Source: Bacteroidales bacterium
GTDB taxonomy: Bacteria > Bacteroidota > Bacteroidia > Bacteroidales > UBA12077
Length of the DNA stretch: 49,173 nucleotides
NCBI GenBank assembly: GCA_030668615.1
Contig: DAOUTQ010000001.1
Location: 1-49,173 of the forward strand
Direction of reading: 5' to 3'
The translations under genes and the position numbers were made by a program. Shown piece after piece: positions 4,561-48,865 of the stretch. Below the pieces are notes generated by a model, which was given only the letters and a program-made list of their open reading frames with translations, was not told where the DNA came from and ran no database searches. The stretch's first letter is position 1. Each line of letters starts with the position of its first letter.

Positions 4561-4587
4561 TTTTCACGTGTAATAATCAAAAACGCT

Positions 4588-5925: not shown

Positions 5926-6038
5926 TTAAAGAGTTGTCTTTTCTACATTAAAAATATTTTATTGATTGCTATTTTTTCTTAAGATTATCAGCTTCTGCAT
6001 AATATTTTCATTATTTTTATATAATTTCGCTTAAGATT

Positions 6039-8990
6039 ATGAAAATTAATATGAAAAAGGTTTTTATACTTTTAGTTACAAGTCTATTTTTAATTTCAAA
6101 TGTACCTGCTCAGGAATATTATGAATTAGAAGAATTATTTTTGGATGCAGACTCTTGGTTTTCGTACGAAGACTACGAAGAAGCCGTTCCTTTATTTCTT
6201 AGGGTTCTTGAATCTGATTCATTGAATTACAATGTAATGTACAAAATTGGCTTTTCATACTTACATATTCCAGGTCAAAAAGCAAAATCAATTTCATATC
6301 TTGAAAATGCTATACAAAAAACAACCGATACATACCGTAATAATACCTATTTAGAAAAACTGGCTCCGGTTGATGCTTTATTTTACCTCGGGAATGCATA
6401 TCTAGTAAATAATAGAATTGATGAAGCTATTGACGTATATTCCGGTTTCCAGAATGCAATTACCAGAACTAAAAAACTGGCAAATAAAGACATATATGAC
6501 ACCGATTACCTTAACAAACAATTTGATGCTTGTCGTAACGCTTTACAATTTCAATATAAGCCGGTTAGTTTTATAGCAAGTAATTTAGGAAATCAAATAA
6601 ATACAAGATTTAATGAATTTAATGCTGTAGTATCTGGAGATGGAACATCACTTGTTTTTACTGCTTCGCTTCAATTTTACGATGCAATTTTTTATTCTAA
6701 AAAAGACAGTAACGGACAATGGGGATATCCAATGAATATTATGGGACAACTGGGCATAGATGATAATAGCGCTACTACAGGATTGTCGTTTAACGGAACA
6801 GAGTTATATATATACCGTGATGATAATTTTGATGGTAATATCTATGTTAGTTACTTTAAAAATGGGATGTGGACAAGAGTGAAAAAGTTAGGCGAAAATA
6901 TAAATACTAAATATTGGGAATCTCATGCTTCTTTATCACCAGACAATCAAAAACTATACTTTGTAAGTAACCGTGCTGGTGGTTTTGGAGATCTTGACAT
7001 TTATGTTGCTCAAAGATTACCTGATTCAACATGGAGTGTTCCTGAGAATTTAGGAGGAAATATTAATACACGCTGGAATGAAAACACACCATTTTTAACT
7101 CCTAATGGTAAACGATTGTTTTTTAGCTCAGAAGGACATCAGGGAATGGGTGGTTACGATATTTTTTATTCCGAGAATAATGGAAGCGACTGGAATACAC
7201 CAGTAAATATTGGTTATCCTATTAATTCTACCGATAACGATATTTTCTTTGCACCAAACAAGAATGGCAGTTTCGCATATTGCTCACAATTTTCAAAAAA
7301 AGGTTTTGGAGGTCAAGATATATATCAGTTTCAATTATTAGACCTGCCTGGTTATAACAACCTTATTGTTGAAGGAGTTGAAACATTTGACAATAAAGAA
7401 GACAGAAATAAAAAAGATTTTAGCATAAATATCATTAATAAAGCGAATCAGGATACTATTGCTGTATTGAAACCTGATAATGATGTAACAGAGTATCAAT
7501 ATCAAACTCCACTAGGATTAAATCATTTAATATATGAGAGTTTGCAAAACGATGAAACAGGTAATCAGTTTTATATATCAAAATCATATGATATAAAAGA
7601 AGTTTTTCTTTCTTCTTTAATTCCTGATGAAGAAATTGAGAAAGATACATTACCTGAAATTAGTGCAGAAAAATCATTCTATGCAATAGACGGCGACGAT
7701 CGTAATATAAAAATCAAATTATCTGTTCAGAAAGGAAATAAGCTATTTGTAAATACTTTTTATAAAGATGAATTAATTAATTCTGAAGAATTCAATATTG
7801 ATAAAGAAGATTTTATATATGAGTATAAGCCTCTTGAAGGTGAAAGTATTATAAAATTTAAGCTGGTTGATAAAAACAATAATGTTAAAACAGAACAAGT
7901 AACTGTATCATATATACCTAAAGATTTTATAGCTGAATTGAACATTGATGAGAAAATTGTAATACTTTCCGAAAATGGCAAAAAAAGTGTAAAAATTAAA
8001 CTTTCTGTTGAAAAAGGTTCTAAATTATTTGTAGAAACTTATGTTGACGATAAGTTAATCAATAAGGAAAGTTTTAATATTAATAAAGAAAGTTTTGTTT
8101 ACGAGCTGGAACCTAAAGGTGAAAAAAGCAAGCTAAACTTTAGACTCGTTGACAAGCATAACAATGTTAAAAACGAAGAAATTATTATATCACATACTCC
8201 TGTAAATGAAGACTTAGCAAATATTCTCTCTGATGTTAGCTCATTTGACAGTCATGATTTCAGGACTATTATAGGAATGAACGAAATCAAATCAGCTACT
8301 TCAGTTGAAAATCTTATTTCTCAGATTTATGCTAAAGCTGCATCTATGGGATTATCAAAAGAACAAACACAGGCATTAATTATTGCATTAGCAATTAGCT
8401 CTACAGATAATACCGAAGAGTTTTTAAATAAATTATATCAAATTTCGGATGGTGATTTAAATACTGTATTAAAAGAAATGAGCTTAAATAAAGCTGATTA
8501 TAAGAATAATTTATCCGTTGTTCAAAATCTGGAACGTGAATCAGAAACACATAATTACAATAATAACCATATCATAAGTTTACTTGAAAAGTATTTATAC
8601 ACTTCTGGTATATCTACAGATGTTTTACTAGCGAAACTGGAAGAGATCCTTAAATCAGATATCTCAGGATTATTAGAAAATATGGGTGCTTCTGCAATCG
8701 ATATTGTTAGTATCGAAGATTTTAAAACGTATTTACGAAATAAAAATACTTACACTGAAACCGAGCTCAACTATATTTTTGCTTTACTTGAAGGAATGAA
8801 AATAACTTCAAAGGCTGCTAAAGATGCTGGATTAGATGTGAAAGAAGATAAAACACTTACTAAAGATACAGATAAGGCCACAAGTAAATGGATGATCCTA
8901 TATATTAGTATTGCCGGAATTCTTCTTGGAATAATTATTATATACTTCAATCGCAGAAAGGATAAAGCAAACAAAAAAAGAAGAAGATAA
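6039..8990 (+). CDS. Large TPR + PD40 beta-propeller protein with internal tandem domains and a C-terminal transmembrane tail anchor, paralog 2
   Basis: Signal peptide. N-terminal 430 aa co-linear with the 4588 and 9066 proteins (QKLYFVSNRAGGFGDLDIYVAQ; LFFSSEGHQGMGGYDIFYSE). Two ~94-aa repeats follow, then a helical region, then WMILYISIAGILLGIIIIYF followed by NRRKDKANKKRRR. Confidence 0.7.
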   Translation: MKINMKKVFILLVTSLFLISNVPAQEYYELEELFLDADSWFSYEDYEEAVPLFLRVLESDSLNYNVMYKIGFSYLHIPGQKAKSISYLENAIQKTTDTYRNNTYLEKLAPVDALFYLGNAYLVNNRIDEAIDVYSGFQNAITRTKKLANKDIYDTDYLNKQFDACRNALQFQYKPVSFIASNLGNQINTRFNEFNAVVSGDGTSLVFTASLQFYDAIFYSKKDSNGQWGYPMNIMGQLGIDDNSATTGLSFNGTELYIYRDDNFDGNIYVSYFKNGMWTRVKKLGENINTKYWESHASLSPDNQKLYFVSNRAGGFGDLDIYVAQRLPDSTWSVPENLGGNINTRWNENTPFLTPNGKRLFFSSEGHQGMGGYDIFYSENNGSDWNTPVNIGYPINSTDNDIFFAPNKNGSFAYCSQFSKKGFGGQDIYQFQLLDLPGYNNLIVEGVETFDNKEDRNKKDFSINIINKANQDTIAVLKPDNDVTEYQYQTPLGLNHLIYESLQNDETGNQFYISKSYDIKEVFLSSLIPDEEIEKDTLPEISAEKSFYAIDGDDRNIKIKLSVQKGNKLFVNTFYKDELINSEEFNIDKEDFIYEYKPLEGESIIKFKLVDKNNNVKTEQVTVSYIPKDFIAELNIDEKIVILSENGKKSVKIKLSVEKGSKLFVETYVDDKLINKESFNINKESFVYELEPKGEKSKLNFRLVDKHNNVKNEEIIISHTPVNEDLANILSDVSSFDSHDFRTIIGMNEIKSATSVENLISQIYAKAASMGLSKEQTQALIIALAISSTDNTEEFLNKLYQISDGDLNTVLKEMSLNKADYKNNLSVVQNLERESETHNYNNNHIISLLEKYLYTSGISTDVLLAKLEEILKSDISGLLENMGASAIDIVSIEDFKTYLRNKNTYTETELNYIFALLEGMKITSKAAKDAGLDVKEDKTLTKDTDKATSKWMILYISIAGILLGIIIIYFNRRKDKANKKRRR
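7650..8213 (+). repeat. Intragenic tandem duplication (2 x 282 bp, ~94 aa each) in the 983-aa protein
   Basis: Unit 1 reads ...NIKIKLSVQKGNKLFVNTFYKDELINSEEFNIDKEDFIYEYKP...KFKLVDKNNNVKTEQ. Unit 2 reads ...SVKIKLSVEKGSKLFVETYVDDKLINKESFNINKESFVYELEP...NFRLVDKHNNVKNEE. Roughly 45% identity by eye. Confidence 0.8.
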
Positions 8991-9065
8991 TAAGTTGTTT
9001 TTATTGGTATTTTTTATTTAAACTAAGTAACTTGCTTTGCTAAATTAACTTATTTTGATCGAGTT

Positions 9066-10352
9066 ATGAGAAAAGTAATTTTAATCACGTTTATTACTAT
9101 TATCGGGAGCTTAACAGCATTCTCTCAATACAAAAGTGCGCTAAAAGAGGCATTCTACGAAGCTGAATATTATATTCTATACGAAGACTACAATGAAGCT
9201 CTGGCACTATACCTTAATCTTTTAAATGACGGGCTTGATAATGCTTATATAAATCATAGAATTGGTGAATGTTACTTGCAGATTCCTGGCCAAAAAAATA
9301 AATCAATTCCTTATTTAGAAAAAGCATGTAATAATGTTACCAAAGTTATAAAAGAAGGTACTTTTAAGGAGACTAATGCACCAATCAGAACAATTTTTTA
9401 TCTTGCTTGCGCATATCAAATAAACAATGAGCTTGATAAAGCAATAGAAACATTTGAGAGTTTTAAACAAACACTTGCTGATAATAAAATATACAATACC
9501 GATTATATTGAAAAACAAATCCAGTCTTGTGAAATAGCAAAAGAATTAATAAATAATCCTACGGAAGTAAAAGTAAGTAATATTGGAGATCAAATAAATG
9601 ATGGGTTCCCAAATATCAGACCCGTTATTTCTTCTAGCGAAAATTGCATGGTATATGTTTCTAAGTTAAAATTCTACGATGCCATATTTTTCACAAAAAA
9701 AGTGGGTGACGAGTGGACATCTCCGATAAATATTACCCCTGAACTAAATTCAGATGGTGATTATTACTCTTGCTTTTTATCAAGTTATGGAAAAACACTG
9801 CTCTTATATAAATATGATGGTTATAACAGCGACATTTACATTAGTCGTAGAGTAATAAATGAACGATGGACAACTCCGGAAAAATTAAATAAACACATTA
9901 ATTCAAAATTTCAGGAAACATTTGCTTCACTGTCTAAAGATGGAAAAACTATTTATTTTGTAAGTGATCGTAAAGGAGGATATGGAGGAACTGATATATA
10001 TAAATCTGTTTACAATGAAAAAACGAAAGATTGGGGTGAAGCAATTAATCTGGGAAGTGAAATTAATACTCCTTTAAATGAAGAAACCCCTGTAATGAGC
10101 GAGGATGGTAAGAAGCTCTTTTTCAGCTCACAAGGTCATTATAACATGGGAGGATTTGATGTGTTTTGTGCACAAATGGATGCAAATAACAACTGGACAA
10201 AACCAAAAAATTTAGGTTATCCGATAAACTCCACAGACGACAACTTATTTTTCTTCCCTGTTGGAGATGGAACAAACGCATACATTTCCAAATTTGATCA
10301 AAATGGATTTGGACAGGAAGACATTGTAAAACTCGAAATTACCTCAAAATAG
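9066..10352 (+). CDS. Secreted TPR + PD40/TolB-like beta-propeller protein, paralog 3
   Basis: Signal peptide MRKVILITFITIIGSLTAFSQ. Same TPR block (IFYLACAYQINNELDKAIETFESF) and PD40 blades (DGKTIYFVSDRKGGYGGTDIYKS; LFFSSQGHYNMGGFDVFCAQ). Confidence 0.7.
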   Translation: MRKVILITFITIIGSLTAFSQYKSALKEAFYEAEYYILYEDYNEALALYLNLLNDGLDNAYINHRIGECYLQIPGQKNKSIPYLEKACNNVTKVIKEGTFKETNAPIRTIFYLACAYQINNELDKAIETFESFKQTLADNKIYNTDYIEKQIQSCEIAKELINNPTEVKVSNIGDQINDGFPNIRPVISSSENCMVYVSKLKFYDAIFFTKKVGDEWTSPINITPELNSDGDYYSCFLSSYGKTLLLYKYDGYNSDIYISRRVINERWTTPEKLNKHINSKFQETFASLSKDGKTIYFVSDRKGGYGGTDIYKSVYNEKTKDWGEAINLGSEINTPLNEETPVMSEDGKKLFFSSQGHYNMGGFDVFCAQMDANNNWTKPKNLGYPINSTDDNLFFFPVGDGTNAYISKFDQNGFGQEDIVKLEITSK

Positions 10353-37060: not shown

Positions 37061-37093
37061 AAAAAAATAAGCCAGCAATAATTGTGCTGGCTT
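37061..37093 (-). terminator. Rho-independent terminator closing the Mrp/complex-I-like operon
   Basis: AAGCCAGCA (37069-37077) pairs with TGCTGGCTT (37085-37093). On the minus strand the stem is followed by a T-run (plus-strand AAAAAAAT, 37061-37068). Confidence 0.7.
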
Positions 37094-37144: not shown

Positions 37145-37627
37145 TTAATCTTCTTTGTTATACAAATGAATCCCGAACGGATTTCTAATATGCTCACGCA
37201 TAAGCTTAGCTTCATTCTCTGTTAATTCTAATTCATTTTTTATTATATCTCCCGATGAAATAATTCCTACCAGGTTATTTGATTCATCAACAATTGGAAT
37301 ATGACGTATTCTTTTCTCTGTCATTATATTCCTTAAATATTTTGTATCGTCATCTGTTTTTCCAATAATTAATTGGTCTTTTGGAGTCATTAAATTTTCA
37401 ATCTTTTGTTCAGTTAATGCAATTCCGGAATTATAGCATTTGTAAAGAATATCTCTTTCTGAAAGGATTCCAACAATTTCATCATTATTATTAATTACCA
37501 ACAAAGATCCTACTTTTAACTCATCTAATCGTGCAATTGCATCATATGCCGATGTATTTTCATGAACAGTATAAACTTTATGATTACCCTGTTCTTTCTT
37601 TTTATTTAGTATTTCCTTTACTAACAT
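37145..37627 (-). CDS. CBS-pair domain protein
   Basis: 160 aa with two CBS motifs (GSLLVINNNDEIVGILSERDIL; RHIPIVDESNNLVGIISSGDII). Confidence 0.8.
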   Translation of the reverse strand: MLVKEILNKKKEQGNHKVYTVHENTSAYDAIARLDELKVGSLLVINNNDEIVGILSERDILYKCYNSGIALTEQKIENLMTPKDQLIIGKTDDDTKYLRNIMTEKRIRHIPIVDESNNLVGIISSGDIIKNELELTENEAKLMREHIRNPFGIHLYNKED

Positions 37628-37706: not shown

Positions 37707-39503
37707 TTATCCATCCTGATTAATAAACTTATCTATTCCGATTGCAGCCTTATGTCCATTAGCAATTCCATGAATTACATCTGGTCCCTGAATTATATCT
37801 CCACCAATAAATAACCATTTAGCTCCTGTTTGGAAATACTCATCTACAACGATTCTACCACGTGGATCAAACTCAATCTGATCACGAGTTTCCGGGTTAA
37901 TATATTCAATATCCATTCCCTGACCAATTGACTCAACTATCATATCAGCCTCAAAGAATTTTGTGTCTTTCTCATCAAACTTTGGACTAAATCGTCCACT
38001 TTCGTCAAATACAGACAAACATTTCTGAACATGCAATCCTTTAATTTTATCGTTCTCAATTTCTATAGATGTTGGTCCCCAACCCGGATCAATTATTGCT
38101 TTTTCTTCTCTTGACTCAACAACTTCTTCTCTGTCGGCAGGCATAATATCTTCTGATTCTAATGATGTAGCAGTTACATCTACTTTTCCGAATTTATTAT
38201 TTTGTAATCGCGCCAACGAACGGGTAATATCCATTGCAACATTACCACCGCCAATAACAACAATCTTTTCTGATACTTGAATTTCTTTACCTAATGAAAT
38301 TTCTCTTAATAAATCGGTTGCAAAAAATACATCTTTATGATCTGATCCTGGGATTCTTGTACTTCTACCAAGGTGCAATCCTGTTCCTGCAAATACTGCA
38401 TCATAGTCACTCTTTAACTTATCTAAAGTTATATCAGTTCCAATATTTACATTGTATTCTATTTTAACACCAAGACTTAAAATGTAATTAATATCTTTAT
38501 CGATTTGATCGTAAGGTAATCGATACTCAGGAATTCCATAACGCATCATCCCTCCAGCCTCAGGTAACTTCTCATAAATTGTACAATCATATCCTGTTAA
38601 TGCAAGATAATAAGCAGCTGATAATCCGGATGGACCAGAACCAATAATTGCTACTTTTTTGCCATTATTTTCAACATTTCCTGCATTTAAAATTTCTTTA
38701 TATTTTTCTGAAGGATTTTGATCGGCAATATATCTCTTCAACCAACGAATTGACAACGGATCTCCTTTATGCCCAATAGAACAAACATCTTCGCATTTGT
38801 GAGTACAAATACGACCGCAAATTTCCGGCAGTGGATTTGTTTCATATAAAATCCGTAAACCTTCTTCTAAATCATCATTCCTGATTGCTTTGATATACTC
38901 AGGTATTCCCATATGAGCTGGACATGTTGCAGTACAAATTCCACATTCAACACATCTGTCAGCCTCTTCTTCTGCCTGTTGTTTTGAGTAACCAGTTACA
39001 AACTCAATAAATGATTTATCCCTATCTTCAGCATGAAGCTCAGGCATATGAACTCTTTCAGTTCCATAAAGTTCATAATTTGGTTCAGGTTTTTTCCAAC
39101 CTTTTTCTTCATTATCCCATGCTTTTTTATCCACTCCCGGAATAAATCTAAACGCATCAGGATCTTCATCTACCCATGTAAAATGATTTGAAAGGCTCAA
39201 CGAATTTGTTGTACATACGTCAACACATAATGCACACCAACAACAACGGCCGTAATCAATCATTGGACGTAAACCACTATCTCCATCTTTTGTTTCAATA
39301 CCATCAACAGGAACAAGGTCGATTGCTTCATTCTGGCAAATATCTTCACAAGTTCCACATCCAATACATGACTCTATATCATTTTTATGAAACCCCCTGT
39401 ATCTTTCGGCACCTTCCCTGCTTTGCGGATCTTTAATAGTAACAGGTTCTTTTACTACATGTTTCCAGGCTGTAAATGGTGATAATATGTCTTTTAATTT
39501 CAT
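37707..39503 (-). CDS. Fusion protein: NuoI/MbhN-like 2x[4Fe-4S] ferredoxin domain + GltD/NfnB/SudA-like NAD(P)H-dependent FAD oxidoreductase
   Basis: Residues ~45-100 carry CIGCGTCEDIC and CCWCALCVDVC (two Cx2Cx2Cx3C). Residues ~180-598 carry CVECGICTATCP, CGRICTHKCEDVC, VAIIGSGPSGLSAAYYL (FAD GxGxxG) and VVIGGGNVAMD (NAD(P)H). Confidence 0.8.
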   Translation of the reverse strand: MKLKDILSPFTAWKHVVKEPVTIKDPQSREGAERYRGFHKNDIESCIGCGTCEDICQNEAIDLVPVDGIETKDGDSGLRPMIDYGRCCWCALCVDVCTTNSLSLSNHFTWVDEDPDAFRFIPGVDKKAWDNEEKGWKKPEPNYELYGTERVHMPELHAEDRDKSFIEFVTGYSKQQAEEEADRCVECGICTATCPAHMGIPEYIKAIRNDDLEEGLRILYETNPLPEICGRICTHKCEDVCSIGHKGDPLSIRWLKRYIADQNPSEKYKEILNAGNVENNGKKVAIIGSGPSGLSAAYYLALTGYDCTIYEKLPEAGGMMRYGIPEYRLPYDQIDKDINYILSLGVKIEYNVNIGTDITLDKLKSDYDAVFAGTGLHLGRSTRIPGSDHKDVFFATDLLREISLGKEIQVSEKIVVIGGGNVAMDITRSLARLQNNKFGKVDVTATSLESEDIMPADREEVVESREEKAIIDPGWGPTSIEIENDKIKGLHVQKCLSVFDESGRFSPKFDEKDTKFFEADMIVESIGQGMDIEYINPETRDQIEFDPRGRIVVDEYFQTGAKWLFIGGDIIQGPDVIHGIANGHKAAIGIDKFINQDG

Positions 39504-39529
39504 ATTTATTATTTAATATTTGCTAATTA

Positions 39530-39892
39530 CTATTTATTATTGATTTTTTGGTTTAGTGTTTTTCGAGATGCTATAAATATTGATGTTAGTTCTTTACTTT
39601 CTTTTTAAAGATCTTCTAACAATTCCAACTTCATTAATTTTTCATCACTAATAAACTCTAACCAAAATATACTTTCATCAGCTTCTTCAATGTCTATACT
39701 TAATTTTGAAATAAAACTTTTCGTGGACTGAGCGATACAAGCTGCTCTATAATTTGCAGCAACAGAAGTAGAACATCGAACTAACTGACCTTTAATATGA
39801 TTCCCTAACATATTTCCAGGAAGAGATAACGCCAATTTCACACATCTATGTGCAAATGCTTTTGTTCTTAATATCAACTCATCTTTGTTCAT
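39530..39892 (-). pseudogene. Four-helix-bundle protein gene (23S rRNA intervening-sequence protein family) with an in-frame TAA
   Basis: 39605-39892 encodes 95 aa (RTKAFAHRCVKLALSLP...GQLVRCSTSVAANYRAA...ESIFWLEF). After the TAA at 39605-39607 the same frame continues as KESKELTSIFIASRKTLNQKINNK to a TAG at 39530-39532, giving the usual ~120-aa family length. Confidence 0.65.
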
Positions 39893-39927: not shown

Positions 39928-41118
39928 TTATCTTTCAATTTCGGGTGGATAAGTGTGTAATGACACCATTAATCCGGCCACATCAGCAATATTTGTATTA
40001 ATAATCATTTTTTCTAATAAAGCAATTGCATGAGTGTAACTTGGTCCACGAACATTTATTCTACGTGGATATTCTGTTCCATCAGAAACCATATAATATC
40101 CATACTCCCCTCTTGTACATTCTGCCCGACTATATGTTTCTCCTTTTGGTACTTTCCAATGAAGCACATTAGGAGTTTTTGCTTTTATATCTCCTTTTTC
40201 CGGCATCTTAGCAAAAATCTGTCGAATTAAATCTATTGAAAGCAAAAGATCTTTTCTTCTCACATCAGCTCTGGTATATATATCAGAATCTTTACCAACA
40301 ATTGCATCAAAATCTAAATCTGCATATTTTAAATATGGATAATCTTTTCTTACATCTTTTGCCACTCCGGCAGCTCTGGCATTTGGACCAGTAATCCCAA
40401 ATTTATTTATCCATGCTGGGTCAATATACCCAATACCAACCGAACGTTTTTTGAAAACAGCATTATTAAACATTACTTTATCAATATCTCCCATAAACTT
40501 CTCTATGGTCTGTAGAGTTTCTTCCATACGTTCTTTAAAGCCGTCAGGTAATAATCCCCGAACACCGCCGGGAAGTTGATACATATGATAAATTCTACCT
40601 CCGGTTAACTCTTCAAATCTATCAAGGACGAGATCGCGAAGATAATTTGCCCATTGGCCAATAATACCTGAACCAAAAGCTCCAGATTGTCCTCCAATCC
40701 ACATAAGATATGACTGCAAGCGTGACATTTCAAGAACAAGAGTTCTTAACCATTTTGCCATTTCCGGAATTTCAATTCCGGCTAATTCTTCCATTGCAGA
40801 TGCAAAACAGTACTCATTAAAATCCGGTTCAGGAACAGCAACTCTACACACAATAGGAAAACATTGAATATATTTTCTGCGCTCCATTAGTTTTTCAAAA
40901 CCACGATGAAGGTAACCAACATGCGTTTCGCAATGCATAACTTCATCGCCTAAGACAGTGAGTTCTAAAGCCATATTCCCGGTAATACCTGGATGCTGTG
41001 GACCTTGCCACAATTTTAGATATTTGTGTGAGCTTAAATCTATATCAATTTTCCCATCAGCATTCTTCTCAGGAAATTGCGATCTGTCTTCAGTTATTTT
41101 AAACAATTTATTTTTCAT
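39928..41118 (-). CDS. NuoD / MbxL-like 49-kDa-type subunit lacking [NiFe]-ligand cysteines
   Basis: GPQHPGITGNM...VGYLHRGFEKLMERRKY is the NuoD/large-subunit signature. The position of the hydrogenase RxCGxC motif reads IVCRVAVPEP. The C-terminus reads SLHTYPPEIER instead of DPCxxCxxR. Confidence 0.8.
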   Translation of the reverse strand: MKNKLFKITEDRSQFPEKNADGKIDIDLSSHKYLKLWQGPQHPGITGNMALELTVLGDEVMHCETHVGYLHRGFEKLMERRKYIQCFPIVCRVAVPEPDFNEYCFASAMEELAGIEIPEMAKWLRTLVLEMSRLQSYLMWIGGQSGAFGSGIIGQWANYLRDLVLDRFEELTGGRIYHMYQLPGGVRGLLPDGFKERMEETLQTIEKFMGDIDKVMFNNAVFKKRSVGIGYIDPAWINKFGITGPNARAAGVAKDVRKDYPYLKYADLDFDAIVGKDSDIYTRADVRRKDLLLSIDLIRQIFAKMPEKGDIKAKTPNVLHWKVPKGETYSRAECTRGEYGYYMVSDGTEYPRRINVRGPSYTHAIALLEKMIINTNIADVAGLMVSLHTYPPEIER

Positions 41119-41626
41119 CTGGATATAGCTTTTTCTTCATGTACTCTGCCGGATCATTTGATTCTCTTCCGGGTCTTGGGAAATATGTATCTTCCGAGTA
41201 TTGCTTTGTATCAAAATCTCTTCTATATGGTGGTTTGTCGTCCCATCCTTCAAGAATAAATGGCTTATCAACATCTGGGCTACCCGGGAAATCAATTCCA
41301 AACATTTCTTTTAATTCTCTCTGATAAGTTGCTACTTGCTCCCATAAATGATGTGCAGTTTCCATAGTAGCATCCTCACGAGAAATAAACACCCTTACTC
41401 CTAAGTCTGATTTCTCATCAGGGTTATTTAAAAGATAAGTCAATTGAAATTCCTCATCTTCCAGCCAGTCAGCAGCAGTAAGTAATACCAAATGCTTAAA
41501 TCCTTTAACATCTCTCAAATAAGTTACTAAAGAAATAGCATGTTCTTTTGGAATTGTGATAAAACTGAGATTTTCTCGCTGCTCAATAATATCAGTTATA
41601 TCAAATTTGGTTTTTATATCGTTCAT
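41108..41626 (-). CDS. NuoC / MbhK-like 30-kDa-type subunit
   Basis: 172 aa. LVTYLRDVKGFKHLVLLTAADW and YQRELKEMFGIDFPG blocks are typical of Complex1_30kDa. Overlaps the NuoD-like start by 11 nt. Confidence 0.75.
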   Translation of the reverse strand: MNDIKTKFDITDIIEQRENLSFITIPKEHAISLVTYLRDVKGFKHLVLLTAADWLEDEEFQLTYLLNNPDEKSDLGVRVFISREDATMETAHHLWEQVATYQRELKEMFGIDFPGSPDVDKPFILEGWDDKPPYRRDFDTKQYSEDTYFPRPGRESNDPAEYMKKKLYPDEK

Positions 41627-41776: not shown

Positions 41777-42415
41777 TTACCAATTATAATCGGGCATATC
41801 CCAATCTTTAATTACTTTCTTTTGATTTGCTTTATACCAATCAAACTTTTCTGCATAGGTATTTGCTCCTTCACCGCGTCCTTCTGTTATAATAGTTTTC
41901 AATTTATCGAAACCTGCTAATAATGATTCTGGTCTTGGCATACAGCCGGCAATATAAACATCAACAGGCATATAATGATCAAGTCTATTTATGGTGTTGT
42001 AGCTATCCCAGTACATTCCGCCGTTTATAGTACAACTACCAAGCGCAATTACAAATTTTGGATTTTGCATTTGCTCATATGTTCGAACAACTCTTTTTAA
42101 AGTTTTCACCGATAAATATCCTGAAACAACAAAAACAGAAGCTTGTCTTGGTGTTGGTCTCCACTGAATCCCATACCTGTAAGCATCAAATCGGGGAGTC
42201 ATTAAAGGGCGCATTTCAATAGCACCACAACCTGTTCCAAATCCAAGTACCCAAAGGGAATTAGCTCTTGCCCAATTCGCAAATTTTTCAATTATTGGAT
42301 GTGCTGGCTTATAAACCTTTGGTTTAGCATCACTAAAATAATCTTTTAAAGGATCTATTTCAATTGGTTTACCCTCAGGGGAAATTACCGTTCTTTTTTT
42401 AAAATCTTCTTTCAT
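41777..42415 (-). CDS. NuoB / MbhJ-like 20-kDa-type subunit with only three cysteines
   Basis: GFGTGCGAIEM (canonical is CCxxE), LGSCTINGG and IAGCMPRPE. No other Cys in the 212 aa. Confidence 0.8.
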   Translation of the reverse strand: MKEDFKKRTVISPEGKPIEIDPLKDYFSDAKPKVYKPAHPIIEKFANWARANSLWVLGFGTGCGAIEMRPLMTPRFDAYRYGIQWRPTPRQASVFVVSGYLSVKTLKRVVRTYEQMQNPKFVIALGSCTINGGMYWDSYNTINRLDHYMPVDVYIAGCMPRPESLLAGFDKLKTIITEGRGEGANTYAEKFDWYKANQKKVIKDWDMPDYNW

Positions 42416-42424
42416 CTTCTAAAA

Positions 42425-43342
42425 TCAAATTAAAATTATTGCAATAATTCCAATAATTAAGGGTACTGTTAAAAACCATCTTACTGATTGATCAACCCTA
42501 AAGCGTGGAAAAACAGTTCCCACAAAAACCGGCCACATATAGATTAAAAATGTTTTAAGGATTAGTTCAGCCCAATTTGTTGCACCTCCAAAAAGCAAAT
42601 TCATAAACAGAATTAATTTTGCTGCGGGAAAAATTGCACGATTAAGTTGCAATACACCCAAAAGACCTGACTGAAATTCTGTAGGTGGTCCTATTGGGAT
42701 TTCCTGTGGAGCTAAAACTACATCGAAAGGTGAACGTCCCATAGCTCCTAAAAACGCAATTAGCATTGCAATTGCGGCAAAAGGATTGGTAATAATTGTC
42801 CAGTTCATAAAACCACCTTGTTGAGCTGCAACAATTTCAGTTATATTTAATGTTTGATATTGCATTGCAATTGCAATAACTCCGAGTGTTAATGGCAATT
42901 CAAATGATGTAACTTGTGATAATCCTCTTGAAACACCAATTGCTGAATAAGGATGTCCACTTTCAGCTGCTCCCAACGCCATTCCTAATATTCCAAAAAA
43001 CTGAAAATAAAGAACTAATACTAAATCTCCGGCAAAAGAAAAGTTTCCAAAAATATCAGATCCAAAAATTACAGGCATAAAAAGTAATAAACCAATACCT
43101 CCTGTTAATCTGAAAACCGGAGCAATATAAAACATAACTCCATGAGTAATGGTGCTACGTTTAGCATAATTTTTAATTATATCGATATATGGCTGATACC
43201 ATCTAATCCCATAACGACGCCCTACTCTTGCACCAATCTTACGAACTACTCCCTGAAGAATAAGTCCATAATTTAAAACAATAAAGATTGTTAAAAGGGC
43301 ATACCCTATATTTTTAAATTCCATATGATCCTCCAAACGCAA
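42425..43342 (-). CDS. NuoH / MbhM-like membrane subunit
   Basis: About 8 TM helices. N-terminal LQGVVRKIGARVGRRYGIRWYQPYIDIIKN parallels the ERK..A..Q.R.GP...QP.AD..K block of NuoH. The start could be ATG 43324 instead. Confidence 0.7.
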   Translation of the reverse strand: MRLEDHMEFKNIGYALLTIFIVLNYGLILQGVVRKIGARVGRRYGIRWYQPYIDIIKNYAKRSTITHGVMFYIAPVFRLTGGIGLLLFMPVIFGSDIFGNFSFAGDLVLVLYFQFFGILGMALGAAESGHPYSAIGVSRGLSQVTSFELPLTLGVIAIAMQYQTLNITEIVAAQQGGFMNWTIITNPFAAIAMLIAFLGAMGRSPFDVVLAPQEIPIGPPTEFQSGLLGVLQLNRAIFPAAKLILFMNLLFGGATNWAELILKTFLIYMWPVFVGTVFPRFRVDQSVRWFLTVPLIIGIIAIILI

Positions 43343-46300
43343 TTAGATAAAAGATTACAATAAACGCAATTATATGAAGCACATAAGTCTGTGCGTTCCC
43401 GTCATAAATTCGCCTGATTTTATCGGCTATAGCATGAATTCCTTCAGATACTGCCTCCCAAAAATCTGAGATGATTGGTGATACAAGAAATCCTAATGCT
43501 TTTTTATAAGGTGCAAAGAAATTATATGCAAAATGTGTAGTCTCCGGCAATGATGGACGTTCAGCTGAATATCCAATATTAAATTGTTTTACTTTCTGAG
43601 CATTTCGGTTCATAAACCATAACCATGCAAAAACTATAACAAATATACCCCCAACGATATACATTATTAACTCACCATTCCAGTAGCCAAAATTACTTAC
43701 TGCTAATTGTCCCTGCCATTCCAAAGCTCCATCAGAAAAATATGGCATTATTACTTCGCCAATTGGTTTTAGTAATGAATTTGGAAATGCAGAGAAGATC
43801 ATTATTACACCTAAAATTATATATTGAGGAAGCAACATCCAGAATGGAGCTTCTTTTACTTCGCGGTGCTCATCTTTAAGTTGACCCAGAAAGATTGTAT
43901 GAATTAATCGGAAACAATATAAGAATGCAATTATTCCTGCAAAAAATATTGCACCGGCAGGTAAAAACCATCCTTTATCTAAAACAGCATTATATAATAT
44001 CCATTTTCCACCAAATCCGGTTAACGGAGGTACGCCTGAAATAACAATAATCCCCATTAAAACAGAAATAAAAGTAAAAGGCATCTTTTTTATTAATCCA
44101 CCCATCTTATACATTTCTTTAGTTTTAACCCTCATAACAACTCCTCCTATCGCAAGGAATAATAATGTTTTAAACATAAAGTGAATAACAGATAATGAAA
44201 CTGCTGCCAACCATCCTAAATGCGACATAAGTGCTAATCCAAACAAGGCATATCCTAAAAATCCAACACTGGAATAAGCAAGTAATCGCTTTGCATCTTC
44301 CTGAAATGCTGCCATCATATTACCCATTATTGCAGTAATAGCGCCAATCCATGCAAGTGCATAATAAATATCAAAACTTCCAAATGATTGAGCTCCCATT
44401 CTTAGCATTAAAACAATTAAACCAAACACACCGGCTTTCAATAAAATTGCTGATACCATAGGTGATACATCGCTTTCAGCCTCGGCATGTGCTCCCGGCA
44501 ACCAAATGTGTAATCCAATGGAAGCAGTTTTAGTCATAAAACCAACTGCCAGTAAAGTAAAAATTATTGGCGCATAGCCCTGTACATTTGCTAAAATATC
44601 AAGCGAATATGATGATTGGCCAATATGAGCCAAACCAAATCCTGCAAGTATTAAATAAGCACCTCCCACCGAGAAAAGCATATAACTCAATGCATGAGTC
44701 ATTGATTTCTTCCCTCTAATAATTAAGAAATATGAACCTATTGTCATTATTTCCCATGCAAAAAAGAATTCGAGTGTTGTATTAGCCTCAATTAAACCAA
44801 GAAGCCCTGCAAACATCATCATTACTAAAGGATAGAAACCTTGTCTTTTCCCTTTATAAGTATATCCCGCAAGTAAAGTAAGAATACCACCTGCAAGAAA
44901 TATCAAAGCAAAAATCAAGTTAAATTCTTCAAGTCCTGGATATATTGTGTATAAATAATATCCTATACCCGCTATTGAAATTGTGTTTTTAATATATACC
45001 GGCAGAAAATCAATTGCATATAAGAAAAGAATAAATAACAGTGGAATGTAATTTAGACTTGCTGCCGAACCTGTTAATGTACTATAATAATATCCAATTG
45101 CATATAAACCTAAAGCAAAAATAATGACAGGTATTATTTTATTCCATTGTATTTTAAATTCAGGTAGATCCTGATTTTCACCTTTAATTGCATATCCAAA
45201 CCAACGGAATAGATAAACTCCTTCGATAAATGATCCGATCAAAATTAGAGCAAGCCAAATAATCTTATCATTATTTGCAAGTTGCATTATTAATTCCCAC
45301 TTTGCAAAGAATGATGGAAATGGCGGGAATCCAACTAAAGCAAAAATGAAAGTCCCCATCAGAACTAATAAATGTGGATTTCTTCTGATTGCTGCCCATC
45401 CCTTTATATTTTTAGAATTAATTATTCCTGATAACCAGAACAATCCGGCTTTTGCAAGAGCATGAGATATTAAAACCCCAAAAGCTATAAATAAAGTTTT
45501 GTCTCCAAGATATGGAGTTAAACCAATTATTGTTAATAGCAGACCTATTTGTCCAATTGATGAGTAACCTAATAAACGGTTTGTTGTGTTTTGTTTTAAT
45601 CCCAATAAATTTGACCCAAGGAAAGTAATGATTCCAATTATACCTATAATATAATACCCCGACTCTCCTACAATTGGTAAAATCTTTGTGAGAACAAAAA
45701 TTACAGCTGATGCGGAAGCTGCAGAAACAATAGTCCCAATTCCTGGATGTGCTGCTTCATAAACATCCAAAGCCCATCCATTTGCAGGAAAAGGCTTTAA
45801 TTCCAAGACTATAGCAATAAGAATTAAAAATACGGCAACTGCGCCACCTTTAATAAAACTTAAATTCGAATTAATAATATCATTAATATATAAAGATTCT
45901 GCATAATAATACACAGCTATAATTCCAATCAATAGTATACCACTAATAATAGCTGTTGCAATAATATATTTAAATCCAGCACTTATAGCATTTGCACTTT
46001 TATCAAGAATAATTAAACCTGCCGTTGCAATACTGGCAATCTCAAGAAATACAAACAGATTGAAAATATCTCTGGTCATTACTACCACATTAAGTCCCAT
46101 GAACAGAAGAACAAATACCATCATCATCTGAACGCCTTTTTCTTTGAGCTTGTCATACATATATATTGCCGATAGCAATCCTACAATATTTATTATGCTC
46201 AAAAAAACTGCTTCATAAAACCCCATTTGCAAACTAATTGAAAATGGTGGTTTAAAACCTGCTGTAAAAATTTGTATTGTTTCCTGTTGCTGAGTTAAAA

Positions 46301-46451
46301 AAGCATACAACCACTGACCCGAAATAAAAGTCATAAAGGTCATTGCTAATAACATAAATGCAAAAGAAAATTTGACATTAGCTTTCTTGAAAAATCCAAG
46401 AGAAAACGCCGTTCCTAATGCAACTGCAATTATATATATTGGTCCTACCAT
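43314..46451 (-). CDS. Fused double antiporter-like subunit (two MrpD/NuoL/M/N-type proton-conducting modules in one 1045-aa protein)
   Basis: Module 1 has DIFNLFVFLEIASIATAGLI and LGYSSIGQIGLL. Module 2 has LEFFFAWEIMTIGSYFLI, WLPGAHAEAESDVS and LLAYSSVGFLGYA. About 28-30 TM helices. Confidence 0.8.
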   Translation of the reverse strand: MVGPIYIIAVALGTAFSLGFFKKANVKFSFAFMLLAMTFMTFISGQWLYAFLTQQQETIQIFTAGFKPPFSISLQMGFYEAVFLSIINIVGLLSAIYMYDKLKEKGVQMMMVFVLLFMGLNVVVMTRDIFNLFVFLEIASIATAGLIILDKSANAISAGFKYIIATAIISGILLIGIIAVYYYAESLYINDIINSNLSFIKGGAVAVFLILIAIVLELKPFPANGWALDVYEAAHPGIGTIVSAASASAVIFVLTKILPIVGESGYYIIGIIGIITFLGSNLLGLKQNTTNRLLGYSSIGQIGLLLTIIGLTPYLGDKTLFIAFGVLISHALAKAGLFWLSGIINSKNIKGWAAIRRNPHLLVLMGTFIFALVGFPPFPSFFAKWELIMQLANNDKIIWLALILIGSFIEGVYLFRWFGYAIKGENQDLPEFKIQWNKIIPVIIFALGLYAIGYYYSTLTGSAASLNYIPLLFILFLYAIDFLPVYIKNTISIAGIGYYLYTIYPGLEEFNLIFALIFLAGGILTLLAGYTYKGKRQGFYPLVMMMFAGLLGLIEANTTLEFFFAWEIMTIGSYFLIIRGKKSMTHALSYMLFSVGGAYLILAGFGLAHIGQSSYSLDILANVQGYAPIIFTLLAVGFMTKTASIGLHIWLPGAHAEAESDVSPMVSAILLKAGVFGLIVLMLRMGAQSFGSFDIYYALAWIGAITAIMGNMMAAFQEDAKRLLAYSSVGFLGYALFGLALMSHLGWLAAVSLSVIHFMFKTLLFLAIGGVVMRVKTKEMYKMGGLIKKMPFTFISVLMGIIVISGVPPLTGFGGKWILYNAVLDKGWFLPAGAIFFAGIIAFLYCFRLIHTIFLGQLKDEHREVKEAPFWMLLPQYIILGVIMIFSAFPNSLLKPIGEVIMPYFSDGALEWQGQLAVSNFGYWNGELIMYIVGGIFVIVFAWLWFMNRNAQKVKQFNIGYSAERPSLPETTHFAYNFFAPYKKALGFLVSPIISDFWEAVSEGIHAIADKIRRIYDGNAQTYVLHIIAFIVIFYLIAFGGSYGI

Positions 46452-46816
46452 TTTAGATCGTTATAATTATTGATTTCTAATGATTTCCTTTTCTGATACA
46501 TTTTTAATACATATGTAAGCATTAGTGCTGTAATACCCAATCCAATTACAATAGCTGTAAGAACTAATGCCTGTGGAACAGGATCAACAACTGCGTTTGC
46601 AGCATTATTTATATCTACAGCATTATCGAGTATTGGTGCTGTCCCGTTCTTAATATAACCAATGCTTACCATTACGATATGTATCCCTGTATCAAACAAG
46701 GCAAATCCGATAATAATCTTTATTAGGTTTTTTTGTGTTAATAAGCCCCATAAACCAATAAGAATTACAAGAATTCCAATAACAAGGCTTATATTTTCTA
46801 AATTAAACTTTTCCAT
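46445..46816 (-). CDS. MrpC/MnhC (NuoK-like) subunit
   Basis: 123 aa, 3 TM. PQALVLTAIVIGLGITALML is typical of MnhC. Overlaps the downstream start by 7 nt. Confidence 0.75.
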   Translation of the reverse strand: MEKFNLENISLVIGILVILIGLWGLLTQKNLIKIIIGFALFDTGIHIVMVSIGYIKNGTAPILDNAVDINNAANAVVDPVPQALVLTAIVIGLGITALMLTYVLKMYQKRKSLEINNYNDLKW

Positions 46817-47514
46817 TATACTTCGTTCTGATTTTCTTGAAGATTAGCAATTATTCCTGATAATTCGGCACCTACTTTTAATCCAACAAAAATGTAGATA
46901 ACAGGAATAAGTCCTGCACTGAAAATTGTTCCGAATTTACCTAAGGATAATAATGTATTGTCGAGAAATCCTGCTGCAAAAATAACACCGGCAACGCCAA
47001 TTAAAACAAAACTCAAACCCGATATTGATTCAACAATTGTAATTAATTTATGACTAACTTCTTTCGCAGGCTGTGACAGCAACATTAAAACCAAGCCCGA
47101 TGCTATTATTGCTCCCCCCTGGAAACCTCCGCCCGGGCTTAAATGTCCGTTAATAAAAACATATATGCCGAATAATAATGTTACCGGCACTAATATTTTT
47201 GATGCTGTATCTAATATTTCACTTGTAGTTCTTAACTTTCGTTTTCGACTTGCACTTGTTTCAATTTTCAGTAAAAAACTCACTATGGCTGCCGACAAGA
47301 ACAAGATAGTTACTTCGCCAAGAGTATCCAACCCACGATATGTAACTACAACTGCTGTTACAAGGTTTGCAGAACCAACTTCTTCAGGTCCCGATACAGC
47401 GTAATGATTTGCTAAAGTATTTAATTCGGAATTACCTTTAAAGCCAACAAATACATTAGCCAATAAAACGGCAAATCCAATTAACACAATAAATATTAAT
47501 ATATTCTTAACCAT
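46816..47514 (-). CDS. MrpB/MnhB-domain subunit (MbhE/F-like)
   Basis: NLVTAVVVTYRGLDTLGEVTILF is the MnhB signature. 232 aa, multi-TM. Confidence 0.75.
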   Translation of the reverse strand: MVKNILIFIVLIGFAVLLANVFVGFKGNSELNTLANHYAVSGPEEVGSANLVTAVVVTYRGLDTLGEVTILFLSAAIVSFLLKIETSASRKRKLRTTSEILDTASKILVPVTLLFGIYVFINGHLSPGGGFQGGAIIASGLVLMLLSQPAKEVSHKLITIVESISGLSFVLIGVAGVIFAAGFLDNTLLSLGKFGTIFSAGLIPVIYIFVGLKVGAELSGIIANLQENQNEV

Positions 47515-47752
47515 TTTGTCTTTTTATTTTGTTTAAAACATAAAAGAAAATAATAGTGGATAATCCACTACCAATAGCTGCTTCTGTCATTGCAACATCA
47601 GGAGCTGACAAAAGCAGATATAATACCGATGCAAACAAACTAACAGCACCTGCAGCTATTATACCTACTACTAAGTTCTTATGAATAATAGCAATTACTG
47701 CCATAATCAGAATTAAAACTCCTATAAAGAGAGCAATTATAAGTTGAATCAT
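47507..47752 (-). CDS. MbhD / MrpA-C-terminal (DUF4040) subunit
   Basis: 81 aa, 3 TM. LLLSAPDVAMTEAAIGSGLSTIIF matches the DUF4040 APDVALTEA block. Confidence 0.7.
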   Translation of the reverse strand: MIQLIIALFIGVLILIMAVIAIIHKNLVVGIIAAGAVSLFASVLYLLLSAPDVAMTEAAIGSGLSTIIFFYVLNKIKRQNG

Positions 47753-47753
47753 G

Positions 47754-48116
47754 TTATTCGTTTTTAATTTCTTTATTTACTTTATAAGTAGTTTCTTCTT
47801 TATCTAACAAATCTGTCACAGTTTTATCTGTCAAAGGAATTTTAATATAATGTGCTGCACGCGCAAGAACATGAGAAGAAACCGGATTGGTAATTAATAT
47901 AAATATCATTAATAATATTAATTTCCCCCACCACTCAGGTGTAATCAATAATAATCCTATTAATGATAAAAGTGTTCCTAAAGTAGAAGCCTTTGTTCCT
48001 GCCTGTATTCGGTTAAACAAATCGGGCATACGAACTAAACCTAAAGCTCCAAGAAATAGGAAAATAGAACCTAACAAAACCAATATTGCACCTATTATTT
48101 CTAATGTACTATCCAT
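47754..48116 (-). CDS. MrpG/MnhG subunit
   Basis: GALGLVRMPDLFNRIQAGTKASTLG is the PhaG/MnhG signature. The ATG at 48116 abuts the upstream stop at 48118. Confidence 0.8.
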   Translation of the reverse strand: MDSTLEIIGAILVLLGSIFLFLGALGLVRMPDLFNRIQAGTKASTLGTLLSLIGLLLITPEWWGKLILLMIFILITNPVSSHVLARAAHYIKIPLTDKTVTDLLDKEETTYKVNKEIKNE

Positions 48117-48117
48117 A

Positions 48118-48378
48118 TTACAATCCCCTTTCAAAATAACGTGAAACAATAATTACTCCCAAAAAGCTAAGTAATCCGTACACTATAGCAACATCCAAAT
48201 AAATTATTCGAGAAGCTAAATAAGCAATTAATGCAATAAGTGCAAGAGAACTAACTGTCATTACATCATATGCAACTAATCGATCCGGAGCTGTCGGGCC
48301 TTTAATAAATCTATAAAGTGATAGCATAATTGCTAACAACATAATTATCGCCGACGCAAAAAGTATTTTACTAACCAT
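48118..48378 (-). CDS. MrpF/MnhF subunit
   Basis: 86 aa. YRFIKGPTAPDRLVAYDVM is the MnhF signature. Confidence 0.8.
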   Translation of the reverse strand: MVSKILFASAIIMLLAIMLSLYRFIKGPTAPDRLVAYDVMTVSSLALIALIAYLASRIIYLDVAIVYGLLSFLGVIIVSRYFERGL

Positions 48379-48865
48379 ATATCTTTTCTAAATGTTTTTC
48401 AAATTTTTTAACAATAGCTTCAGTAGCTTTATCAATATCTTCACAACAAACATCTATACAATGAATGTACAGAATATCATCCTCAATATCAACAGTAAGC
48501 GTACCTGGTGTAAGTGTAATAGAGTTGGCAAGAATCATTCTTCCCATTTTTGATTTTAGTATAGTCTTTGTTTTTATAATTCCCGGATTTATTGGTAAAG
48601 CCGGAGTAAGAACTCGTCTCGCAACATCCAGATTTGATTTAATCAACTCAATTAAGAAAACAAACAGATATAAAATTGTATTCAAGAATGATTTAGGTGT
48701 AAATTTCAATTCATTAAATATCTGTATATGTCGTCCAAAAAGTATTGAAATAATTAGTGAAAGAACAAATCCAATAATTATTAATTCTAATTGAAAACTA
48801 TTATTCAATAAAACCCAAATAATTATTAAAATTATAAAAAGAGATAACTGATTCTTAATCTTCAT
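48371..48865 (-). CDS. MrpE/MnhE subunit
   Basis: NLDVARRVLTPALPINPGII...LANSITLTPGTLTVDI is the MnhE signature. First gene of the operon. Confidence 0.8.
   Translation of the reverse strand: MKIKNQLSLFIILIIIWVLLNNSFQLELIIIGFVLSLIISILFGRHIQIFNELKFTPKSFLNTILYLFVFLIELIKSNLDVARRVLTPALPINPGIIKTKTILKSKMGRMILANSITLTPGTLTVDIEDDILYIHCIDVCCEDIDKATEAIVKKFEKHLEKIYG

Follow-up and report, generated by a model that had tools for sequence, protein, structure and literature searches.

A subunit N fused to an NfnB/GltD-type flavoprotein module in the Mrp-Mbx operon of a Bacteroidales bacterium and its putative role in an MBS-like complex

Introduction

In complex I as well as in MBH and MBS, energy coupling takes place where the proximal NuoB-type cluster reduces the substrate, in the chamber of the NuoD-, NuoB- and NuoH-type subunits (PMC7684303). 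The proximal [4Fe-4S] cluster of MBS, the sulfane reductase of the hyperthermophilic archaeon Pyrococcus, is bound to MbsJ by C28, C93 and C123 only and, being site-differentiated in this way, catalyses the reduction of sulfane (PMC7684303). Subunit N of the same complex, MbsN, is a stand-alone protein of 208 amino acids (aa) that is fed by ferredoxin and touches MbsH' and MbsM with its N-terminus (PMC7684303), and its two clusters are held by C61, C64, C67, C106 and by C71, C96, C99, C102 (PMC8165549). In the mbx-like operons of Thermotoga and of proteobacteria, the position of NuoI is taken by a gltD-related flavoprotein (Degli Esposti, 2015; PMC4758237). GltD-like modules are established conduits in which electrons travel from NAD(P)H via FAD and a pair of low-potential [4Fe-4S] clusters to the Fe-S or flavin cofactors of a partner (PMC8097209). 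Published papers differ on the role of the bacterial family, which appears as a ferredoxin:NAD(P)+ oxidoreductase, as a sulfur reductase or with 'direction unknown'.

Here, we describe a gene of this kind from a mesophile-type Bacteroidota metagenome-assembled genome (MAG). It lies in a 49,173-nucleotide (nt) stretch of Bacteroidales DNA (assembly GCA_030668615.1, contig DAOUTQ010000001.1, positions 1 to 49,173), which was analysed as a whole and is called the window below. A sequence-only reading of this DNA had proposed that the gene encodes a two-cluster domain of the NuoI/MbhN class covalently joined to a complete GltD/NfnB-type Fe-S flavoprotein, and the matches to Pfam, NCBIfam and PDB chains confirmed this. 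Unlike the stand-alone MbsN, subunit N of the window thus carries an Fe-S flavoprotein extension of ~440 aa. The fused form is the usual one for subunit N of bacterial Mrp-Mbx operons and has been catalogued before; it is neither an artefact nor new.

Architecture of the fused subunit N

The gene is located on the minus strand at 37707–39503 and forms one intact open reading frame (ORF) with an ATG start, encoding 598 aa, while the plus strand across the same interval is stop-rich. All residue numbers of the fusion refer to this protein, which was defined by its ORF, Pfam and NCBIfam matches, and an AlphaFold model. Pfam detected a 4Fe-4S dicluster domain at residues 45–100, Fer4_20 (PF14691), a two-cluster domain of the GltD/DPD type, at residues 162–265 (E = 2.6e-30) and Pyr_redox_2 (PF07992) at residues 282–578 (E = 2.6e-25); the domain assignment is far above chance level. 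The ORF lies exactly at the positions that the sequence-only reading had given and contains all motifs quoted there.

The MbsN/NuoI-like domain, delimited by homology, comprises residues 1–134 (39102–39503). Its two [4Fe-4S] sites are C46/C49/C52/C56, in CIGCGTCEDIC (residues 46–56, 39336–39368), and C87/C90/C93/C97, in CCWCALCVDVC (residues 87–97, 39213–39245). A connecting segment (residues ~135–159, 39027–39101) leads to the Fer4_20 domain, which on the alignment to NfnI-L, NfnB and GltD extends over residues 160–265 (38709–39026) and bears the [4Fe-4S] sites C184/C187/C190/C194 (CVECGICTATCP, residues 184–195, 38919–38954) and C229/C233/C237/C241 (CGRICTHKCEDVC, residues 229–241, 38781–38819). 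The FAD and NAD(P)H Rossmann domains follow at residues 282–578 (37770–38660), as indicated by Pfam and by the fold match to 5jca_L, with the FAD site GSGPSG (GxGxxG; residues 288–293, 38625–38642) and the NAD(P)H site GGGNVAMD (GxGxxA; residues 418–425, 38229–38252). In an alignment of 41 sequences with identity down to 46%, all 16 cluster cysteines of the fusion were invariant.

A linker of ~60 aa, as the sequence-only reading had it, is too long. Homology to MbsN stops at about residue 134 and homology to NfnI-L begins at about residue 160 (NfnI-L residue 18), which leaves ~25 residues between them. The AlphaFold model, calculated from the 41-sequence alignment, had a mean pLDDT of 84.2 and a pTM of 0.81. 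Its pLDDT dipped over residues 131–170 (71, 64, 77, and 58 per 10-residue block) and fell below 50 at residues 1–35 only; the low values at the N-terminus would fit a segment that becomes ordered only against partner subunits, as in the contacts of the MbsN N-terminus.

Integrity and distribution of the fusion

With the fusion as query, a protein search yielded more than 120 clusters whose members are ~598 aa long and at least 75% identical to it, derived from independent assemblies and including isolates such as Prolixibacter bellariivorans. A profile of the N-terminal domain plus linker, with which one genome per species was scanned, revealed relatives in at least 581 genomes; the best 80 of these (L001–L080) are referred to as related loci. 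The fused ORF was of full length in 71 of the 80, and the remaining nine were all cut by a contig end, so every uncut locus (71/71) had it intact. Directly upstream of the fusion, 78 of the 80 loci had a NuoD-like gene, at a median distance of 32 nt, and the same twelve-gene order was found in 50 of the 51 loci that held all twelve genes. When a 50%-identity representative library was searched with residues 1–160, fused proteins were recovered down to ~40% identity, among them the annotated oxidoreductase of Thermosipho melanesiensis. The same architecture occurs in Thermotoga maritima MSB8, Fervidobacterium, Petrotoga, Mesotoga, Tepiditoga, Haliovirga, WOR-3, Hydrothermae, and members of the Spirochaetales; the carriers include isolates of T. 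maritima, Thermosipho, Fervidobacterium, Petrotoga, and Prolixibacter. Nothing specific on the fusion in Bacteroidota or other bacteria of the FCB group was found in the literature searched.

The protein is also matched by the curated full-length hidden Markov model NF010590/PRK13984 ('putative oxidoreductase') with 899.3 bits (E = 9.5e-271), residues 2–597 corresponding to positions 7–609 of the 611 in the profile. The equivalog cut-off of this model is 946 bits; T. maritima (1215.3 bits) and Thermosipho (1194.7 bits) lie above it, and the window protein and its Prolixibacter homolog P0069 (897.7 bits) lie just below. Because its score is under the cut-off, the window protein is best regarded as a member of a sister clade of the NF010590 seed group and not as a strict equivalog. 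A comparison with the Thermotogae Mbx proteins (T. maritima P0319; Thermosipho melanesiensis ABR31076.1) demonstrated an identical domain order at 53–54% identity, with lengths of 615–616 aa against 598 aa. The sequence-only reading had mentioned a separate GltD-like gene beside the mbx genes of Thermotogae. This was mistaken, since P0319 of T. maritima (615 aa) and P0133 of Thermosipho (616 aa) are themselves fused proteins encoded in the corresponding operon.

The sequence-only reading had also named a sequencing or assembly frameshift artefact as a refuting condition; mbxN and a gltD-like gene would then be distinct genes that a frameshift or misassembly had joined. Such an origin is practically negligible and was rejected: the fusion recurs in clusters from independent assemblies, in isolates and in all 71 uncut loci, and a curated full-length model describes it. 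The one homolog broken at the module boundary was found on a distant metagenome scaffold. On this ENA scaffold (L084, 1870–4119; homolog P0147, ~45% identical), an in-frame TAG is positioned exactly between the MbsN-like and GltD-like modules (…MDSD*RVKSF…). However, the TAG lies inside a segment of ~411 nt that is present as a tandem duplicate, and the neighbouring NuoD-like gene and a permease gene are broken as well. The TAG may be an assembly artefact or mark a pseudogene, and a natural split or read-through could also account for it; given the tandem duplication and the broken neighbours, P0147 was not accepted as a natural split. Another apparent split candidate, P0137, is on a contig of 670 nt and is uninformative.

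Several further observations were made on the homologs. In the related loci, N-terminal regions with 65–87% identity to the window protein come from contigs that bear the labels Bacteroidales, Chlorobiota, Neomarinimicrobiota, Cloacimonadota, Spirochaetia, Aminicenantes, Delongbacteria, Celeribacter, Thiosymbion, and even Leptospira, which indicates either horizontal movement of the operon across phyla or many mislabelled MAG bins. Triple fusions of ~750–770 aa, Spirochaetales-type, combine the MbsN-like domain, the GltD-like module and a rubrerythrin (P0134, P0371–P0374, P0381, P0384, and similar proteins). The rubrerythrin domain (PF02915) was confirmed at residues 611–747 of P0134 and is precomputed for several other triple fusions. 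In Thermosipho, a rubrerythrin-like protein is encoded by a separate gene directly downstream of the fusion (L081, 11853–12356). These arrangements suggest that the flavoprotein module is functionally linked to peroxide or oxygen protection.

Operon context and signatures of the catalytic subunits

The fusion is the last core gene of a 12-gene minus-strand Mrp-Mbx (MBS-type) operon with the order MrpE-F-G-MbhD-B-C-H'H-M-J-K-L-fusion, which contains the MBS/Mbx gene set: Mrp-like genes, a pair of antiporter-like modules, and subunits resembling NuoH, NuoB, NuoC, NuoD, and NuoI. The position of subunit N (MbhN/NuoI) that the sequence-only reading had assigned to the fusion was borne out. As the window holds no other NuoI-like ORF, the fusion must be subunit N.

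The catalytic subunits of the complex are of the MBS type. The NuoB-like protein (MbxJ/MbsJ, 41777–42415, minus strand) matched MbsJ (6u8y_J) with E = 1.4e-61; NDH/complex I reached ~1e-37 and MbhJ 1.9e-25. The NuoD-like protein (MbxL/MbsL, 39928–41118, minus strand) matched MbsL (6u8y_L) with E = 1.2e-91, compared with 1.4e-58 for Nqo4 and 1.3e-33 for MbhL. C63, C128, and C158 are the only cysteines of the NuoB-like protein; they correspond to the ligands C28, C93, and C123 of MbsJ at an alignment offset of 35 residues, while the non-ligand C25 of MbsJ is replaced by Gly. The motif G(T/S)GCG was present in every scored NuoB-like homolog from related loci (n = 37). In the NuoD-like subunit, the quinone ligands H38 and Y87 of Nqo4 are replaced by T46 and V95; the subunit has neither NiFe cysteines nor an N-terminal CxxC and ends in ...TYPPEIER. 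The cysteines that are vestigial in MBS (C25 of MbsJ, C85 and C385 of MbsL) are absent from the window proteins.

Pyrococcus MBS is the best solved relative for subunits N (9.5e-23), J, and L, and shares with the window the eight MbsN cluster cysteines, the three-Cys proximal cluster, two antiporter-like modules, and Mrp-type distal membrane genes. These comparisons identify MBS/Mbx of the sulfane reductase type, not Mbh, as the nearest relative of the complex. Since the NuoD-like subunit has neither NiFe cysteines nor quinone ligands, the complex is not a hydrogenase and would not be a canonical quinone reductase either; it bears the catalytic signature of MBS. An Mbh-type hydrogenase was rejected on the missing NiFe cysteines and on the far weaker matches of MBH subunits than of MBS subunits. 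A quinone reductase of the complex I/NDH type was disfavoured: besides the absent quinone ligands, the NuoB-like protein has a single Cys in place of the Cys-Cys pair of complex I.

Kinship of the two modules

The first 156 aa of the fusion, searched alone, had their best match in subunit N of Pyrococcus furiosus MBS (PDB 6u8y_N, E = 9.5e-23, residues 5–134), followed by many NdhI/NuoI chains at ~1e-10 and MbhN (6cfw_N) at 7.9e-8. NCBIfam models of NuoI and FpoI matched this domain with E-values from 1e-16 to 1e-26; the NuoI model TIGR01971 gave 70.6 bits (E = 8e-20) with the whole protein and 71.6 bits (E = 4e-20) with the N-terminal fragment, its cut-off being 113 bits. The homology to the NuoI/MbhN class, on which the sequence-only reading stood or fell, is therefore strong, and the match scores place the domain nearer to MbsN than to any NuoI. 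Each of its eight cluster cysteines has its counterpart among the MbsN ligands C61/C64/C67/C106 and C71/C96/C99/C102 (ligands from PMC8165549).

The C-terminal 439 aa matched NfnB-type chains best (9n5u_A, 3e-76; 5jca_L, 1.6e-74; 8oh5_C, 8.9e-71; 4ylf_B, 2.6e-69), ahead of GltD (~1e-48) and DPD (3e-33). In the fold search with the AlphaFold model, the ranking was headed by NfnI-L (5jca_L; TM-score 0.88 normalised to the target, rmsd 2.5 Å), with Xfn, NfnB, and Stn next and then GltD and DPD. Proteins of the NfnB/NfnI-L/StnC type (4YLF_B, 5JCA_L, 8OH5_C, 9N5U_A) are thus the nearest relatives of residues ~160–598 in sequence and fold, and have in common with the fusion module a pair of [4Fe-4S] sites, FAD, and a site for pyridine nucleotides. 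Unlike them, the fusion module is attached to a complex-I-type subunit and has no NfnA-type partner in the operon. Both of its cysteine motifs are spaced differently from those of the NfnB type, the second being C-x3-C-x3-C-x3-C where NfnB and NfnI-L carry an insertion of two residues.

An additional difference was found at the nucleotide site. Behind the second Rossmann strand, the Arg-rich 'YRR' of NADPH-using NfnB-type proteins gives way to 'SLE' in the window protein. 'SLE' with its acidic residue was present in 61 of 62 related loci and in all 32 A3 members scored, whereas 'YRR' is kept in a minority subfamily comprising P0126 (Spirochaetaceae), P0128, P0136 (Hydrothermae), P0166, and P0132. 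Two types of site, 'LE' and 'YRR', can be distinguished at residues ~426–455 of the fusion (window ~38139–38228) and in its homologs; the 'LE' type has an insertion of ~7–10 residues (LQxxKYGK) and characterizes this clade, Thermosipho and part of WOR-3. From what is generally known of Rossmann folds, Glu at this place would point to a preference for NAD(H) and Arg-Arg to one for NADP(H). The split between 'LE' and 'YRR' may therefore be one between NADH and NADPH specificity, and NADH rather than NADPH would be expected for this clade because 'SLE' stands in place of 'YRR'.

The fusion module also resembles GltD and the N-terminal half of DPD, in which it serves as a non-bifurcating wire from NAD(P)H via FAD to two [4Fe-4S] clusters (PMC8097209). 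By analogy, we took such a wire as the working model for the fusion module. The partners are different, however: GltD is paired with the large subunit of glutamate synthase and the DPD module with a DHODH-like domain, neither of which is a membrane complex.

Proposed function and alternative explanations

We propose, with a rough probability of 0.55, that the fused protein links NAD(P)(H), probably NADH, via FAD and four [4Fe-4S] clusters to the three-Cys cluster of an MBS-like ion-pumping complex that probably reduces sulfane sulfur. The fused module would be the built-in NAD(P)(H) site of the complex, and the GltD-like module would have the role that NuoEFG has in complex I. Electrons would move between the nucleotide and FAD, through the two [4Fe-4S] clusters of Fer4_20 and the two of the MbsN-like domain, to the three-Cys proximal [4Fe-4S] cluster of the NuoB-like subunit; we infer that these form a single continuous chain. 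The proximal cluster would face the chamber of the NuoD-, NuoB-, and NuoH-like subunits, and the membrane arm, with the fused H'/H subunits and the Mrp proteins, would couple the chemistry to ion translocation. The direction from NAD(P)H as donor to a sulfane-sulfur compound as acceptor is favoured because the catalytic site of MBS is conserved and because energy coupling occurs at that site in every structurally known relative. The mbx genes of T. maritima are induced by S0 (PMC9431562). It is also reasonable to suppose, as the sequence-only reading did, that the fused module replaces the ferredoxin docking of subunit N.

Several points weigh against this proposal. We found no biochemical data on any fused-type complex in the literature searched, and a paper of 2024 counts bacterial MBX among the complexes of unknown function and direction (PMC11636981). 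The literature on Thermotogae takes ferredoxin to be the donor and NAD(P)+ the acceptor (10.1101/322537; PMC4758237). No sulfur-metabolism genes were found among the annotated genes of the window. The step from NADH (about −320 mV) to polysulfide/H2S (about −260 to −270 mV) yields only ~10 kJ per two electrons under standard conditions. Since this is far below the yield of the ferredoxin-driven MBS reaction, two antiporter-like pumps look over-dimensioned.

The opposite direction would make the complex an Rnf-like ferredoxin:NAD(P)+ oxidoreductase, in which electrons from ferredoxin pass through the Fe-S chain and FAD to NAD(P)+ and the energy drives Na+ or H+ export. We regard this as doubtful, even though this assignment is commonly transferred to the Mbx of Thermotogae, which is labelled 'NADP:ferredoxin oxidoreductase complex' with reference to Schut 2013 (10.1101/322537). 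Fermentative carriers must re-oxidise ferredoxin. By standard potentials, transfer from ferredoxin to NAD+ also releases more free energy than transfer from NADH to polysulfide. However, the path from ferredoxin to NAD+ would remain on the peripheral arm and bypass the coupling site at the NuoD/B/H-like subunits, and yet the three-Cys catalytic cluster is strictly conserved. In addition, the fused module appears to sit at the very end of subunit N where ferredoxin would dock. For the Pyrococcus Mbx itself, the ferredoxin:NADP+ assignment was dropped once polysulfide reduction had been shown, and the complex was renamed MBS (PMC9431562, PMC7684303).

The kinship of the C-terminal module could also point to flavin-based bifurcation or confurcation, in which the FAD would send the electrons of NAD(P)H partly to the membrane complex and partly to another partner, for example ferredoxin: the module's best matches in sequence and fold are all subunits of bifurcating enzymes (NfnB/NfnI-L/Stn), which precede GltD. 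Bifurcation in Nfn requires a second, high-potential branch via the [2Fe-2S]/FAD subunit NfnA. An NfnA-type gene ([2Fe-2S] plus FAD, with an NAD+ site) was found neither in the window operon nor in the 80 related loci or Thermosipho, and the second cysteine motif lacks the NfnB/NfnI-L insertion. The same module is a simple conduit in GltS and DPD (PMC8097209), and we consider bifurcation quite unlikely. Still less probable is that the protein is a soluble ferredoxin-GltD enzyme of the AegA/YgfT kind that merely lies beside the mbx operon. E. coli AegA/YgfT shows its domains in the same order, with a 4Fe-4S ferredoxin-like domain at the N-terminus and a GltD-like module behind it, and AegA-type models match the fusion from the ferredoxin domain onwards (NF009408, residues 44–595); in the window, moreover, a gene for a 23S-rRNA-intervening-sequence protein (IVP) and a gap of 100 nt part the fusion from the NuoD-like gene. 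Yet the score of 250 bits is far from the NF009408 cut-off of 1003, and the N-terminus of AegA, which has no membrane-complex context, resembles the ferredoxins of hydrogenases and formate dehydrogenases and not NuoI/MbsN. The MbsN/NuoI-specific homology of the fusion takes in residues 5–45 before the clusters and the tail to residue 134 after them, and residues 1–35 are the sole stretch with the low pLDDT that would suit ordering against partner subunits. Without the fusion, the operon would have no subunit N/NuoI, and the gap to the NuoD-like gene in 78 related loci has a median of 32 nt.

The proposed NAD(P)(H)-linked role has functional analogs in the N-module NuoEFG and in FpoF of the F420H2 dehydrogenase, both of which are soluble-cofactor dehydrogenases at the NuoI end of an Fe-S chain. 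Their folds and cofactors (FMN in NuoF, F420/FAD in FpoF) are unrelated to the GltD module, and they are normally separate subunits. Among other proteins with NuoI-like domains, P0235 and P0268 have an extra dicluster ferredoxin and an FrhB/FdhB (F420-type, FpoF-like) module, and P0220 is a NuoI-NuoB-NuoD-like fusion. Judged from these sequences, subunit I seems to have acquired input modules repeatedly in evolution.

Other genes of the operon and its surroundings

All genes of the operon are on the minus strand. MrpE (48371–48865), MrpG (47754–48149), an MbhD-like gene (47507–47752), MrpB (46816–47514), and MrpC (46445–46816) were identified with NCBIfam/Pfam. MrpF (48118–48378) was assigned by position and synteny, its Thermosipho counterpart carrying PF04066. 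The antiporter-like subunits H' and H are fused in one protein of 1045 aa (43314–46451) with two Proton_antipo_M modules (PF00361 in two stretches), in which an NF006241-type match covers residues 5–456 and an NF006419-type match residues 464–1036. It is followed by the NuoH-like membrane anchor MbxM (42425–43342; PF00146, E = 7.8e-47), MbxJ, the NuoC-like MbxK (41108–41626; PF00329, E = 3.4e-25), and MbxL. As in the window, H' and H form a single ORF of ~1045 aa in each of the 80 close relatives (L001–L080). Thermosipho shares with the window the place of the fusion as the last core gene of an Mrp-Mbx operon and the 'LE' motif at the nucleotide site; unlike the window, it has H' and H as separate genes for 450 and 614 aa (L081, 3743–6940). 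Downstream of the fusion, the window has a gene for a CBS-pair protein where Thermosipho has the rubrerythrin-like gene.

The fusion and the NuoD-like gene do not adjoin directly in the window. Between them lies the IVP gene (39605–39892, minus strand; PF05635, E = 1.6e-9), which encodes a four-helix bundle of 95 aa. Its reading frame continues for 24 codons past the TAA (KESKELTSIFIASRKTLNQKINNK; region 39529–39892, minus strand), so that a nonsense mutation may have shortened this copy. Only one of the 80 related loci has an IVP-like gene at this junction, and the gene is not a conserved part of the operon. In 8 of 78 loci, the gap from the NuoD-like gene to the fusion exceeded 250 nt; the junction seems to tolerate insertions.

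The CBS-pair protein (160 aa; PF00571, E = 6.7e-22) is encoded downstream of the fusion at 37145–37627 on the minus strand. A CBS gene was located downstream of the fusion in 26 of the 80 related loci and adjoined it directly in 12, and its product could be a nucleotide-sensing regulator of the complex. The gene is probably the last of the transcription unit. Past it, a consensus scan alone marked a terminator-like GC-rich hairpin (37069–37093) with T-runs on both strands. A promoter scan of the window returned sites no more frequently than in shuffled sequence. A type IX secretion system (T9SS) gene adjoins the operon region and, like the closest homologs, indicates a Bacteroidales origin. 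At 4558–10352 on the plus strand, three consecutive ORFs of 455, 983, and 428 aa each contain a PD40 (WD40-like beta-propeller) repeat at a similar relative position, which suggests an array of paralogous genes.

Implications for the Mbx family

The window gene is one more typical Bacteroidota member of a catalogued and widespread family. Carriers of the fused-type Mbx include mesophilic Bacteroidota, Thermotogae, Spirochaetia, Marinimicrobia, and others. A bolder generalization about the whole family is conceivable, although we hold it only tentatively: fused-type Mbx would be an ion-pumping sulfane-sulfur reductase driven by NADH and not by ferredoxin, an independent NADH plug-in to a complex-I-type pump, in which 'YRR' and 'LE' mark NADPH and NADH lineages. 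The three-Cys catalytic cluster and the 'LE'/'YRR' dichotomy are concrete, testable handles on these questions. If the generalization is true, the GltD/NfnB module on subunit I would represent a second, independent gain of a pyridine-nucleotide dehydrogenase by a complex-I-like machine, in place of NuoEFG. If the input of NADH is true, models of redox balance would change for many anaerobic Bacteroidota, Thermotogae, and symbionts.

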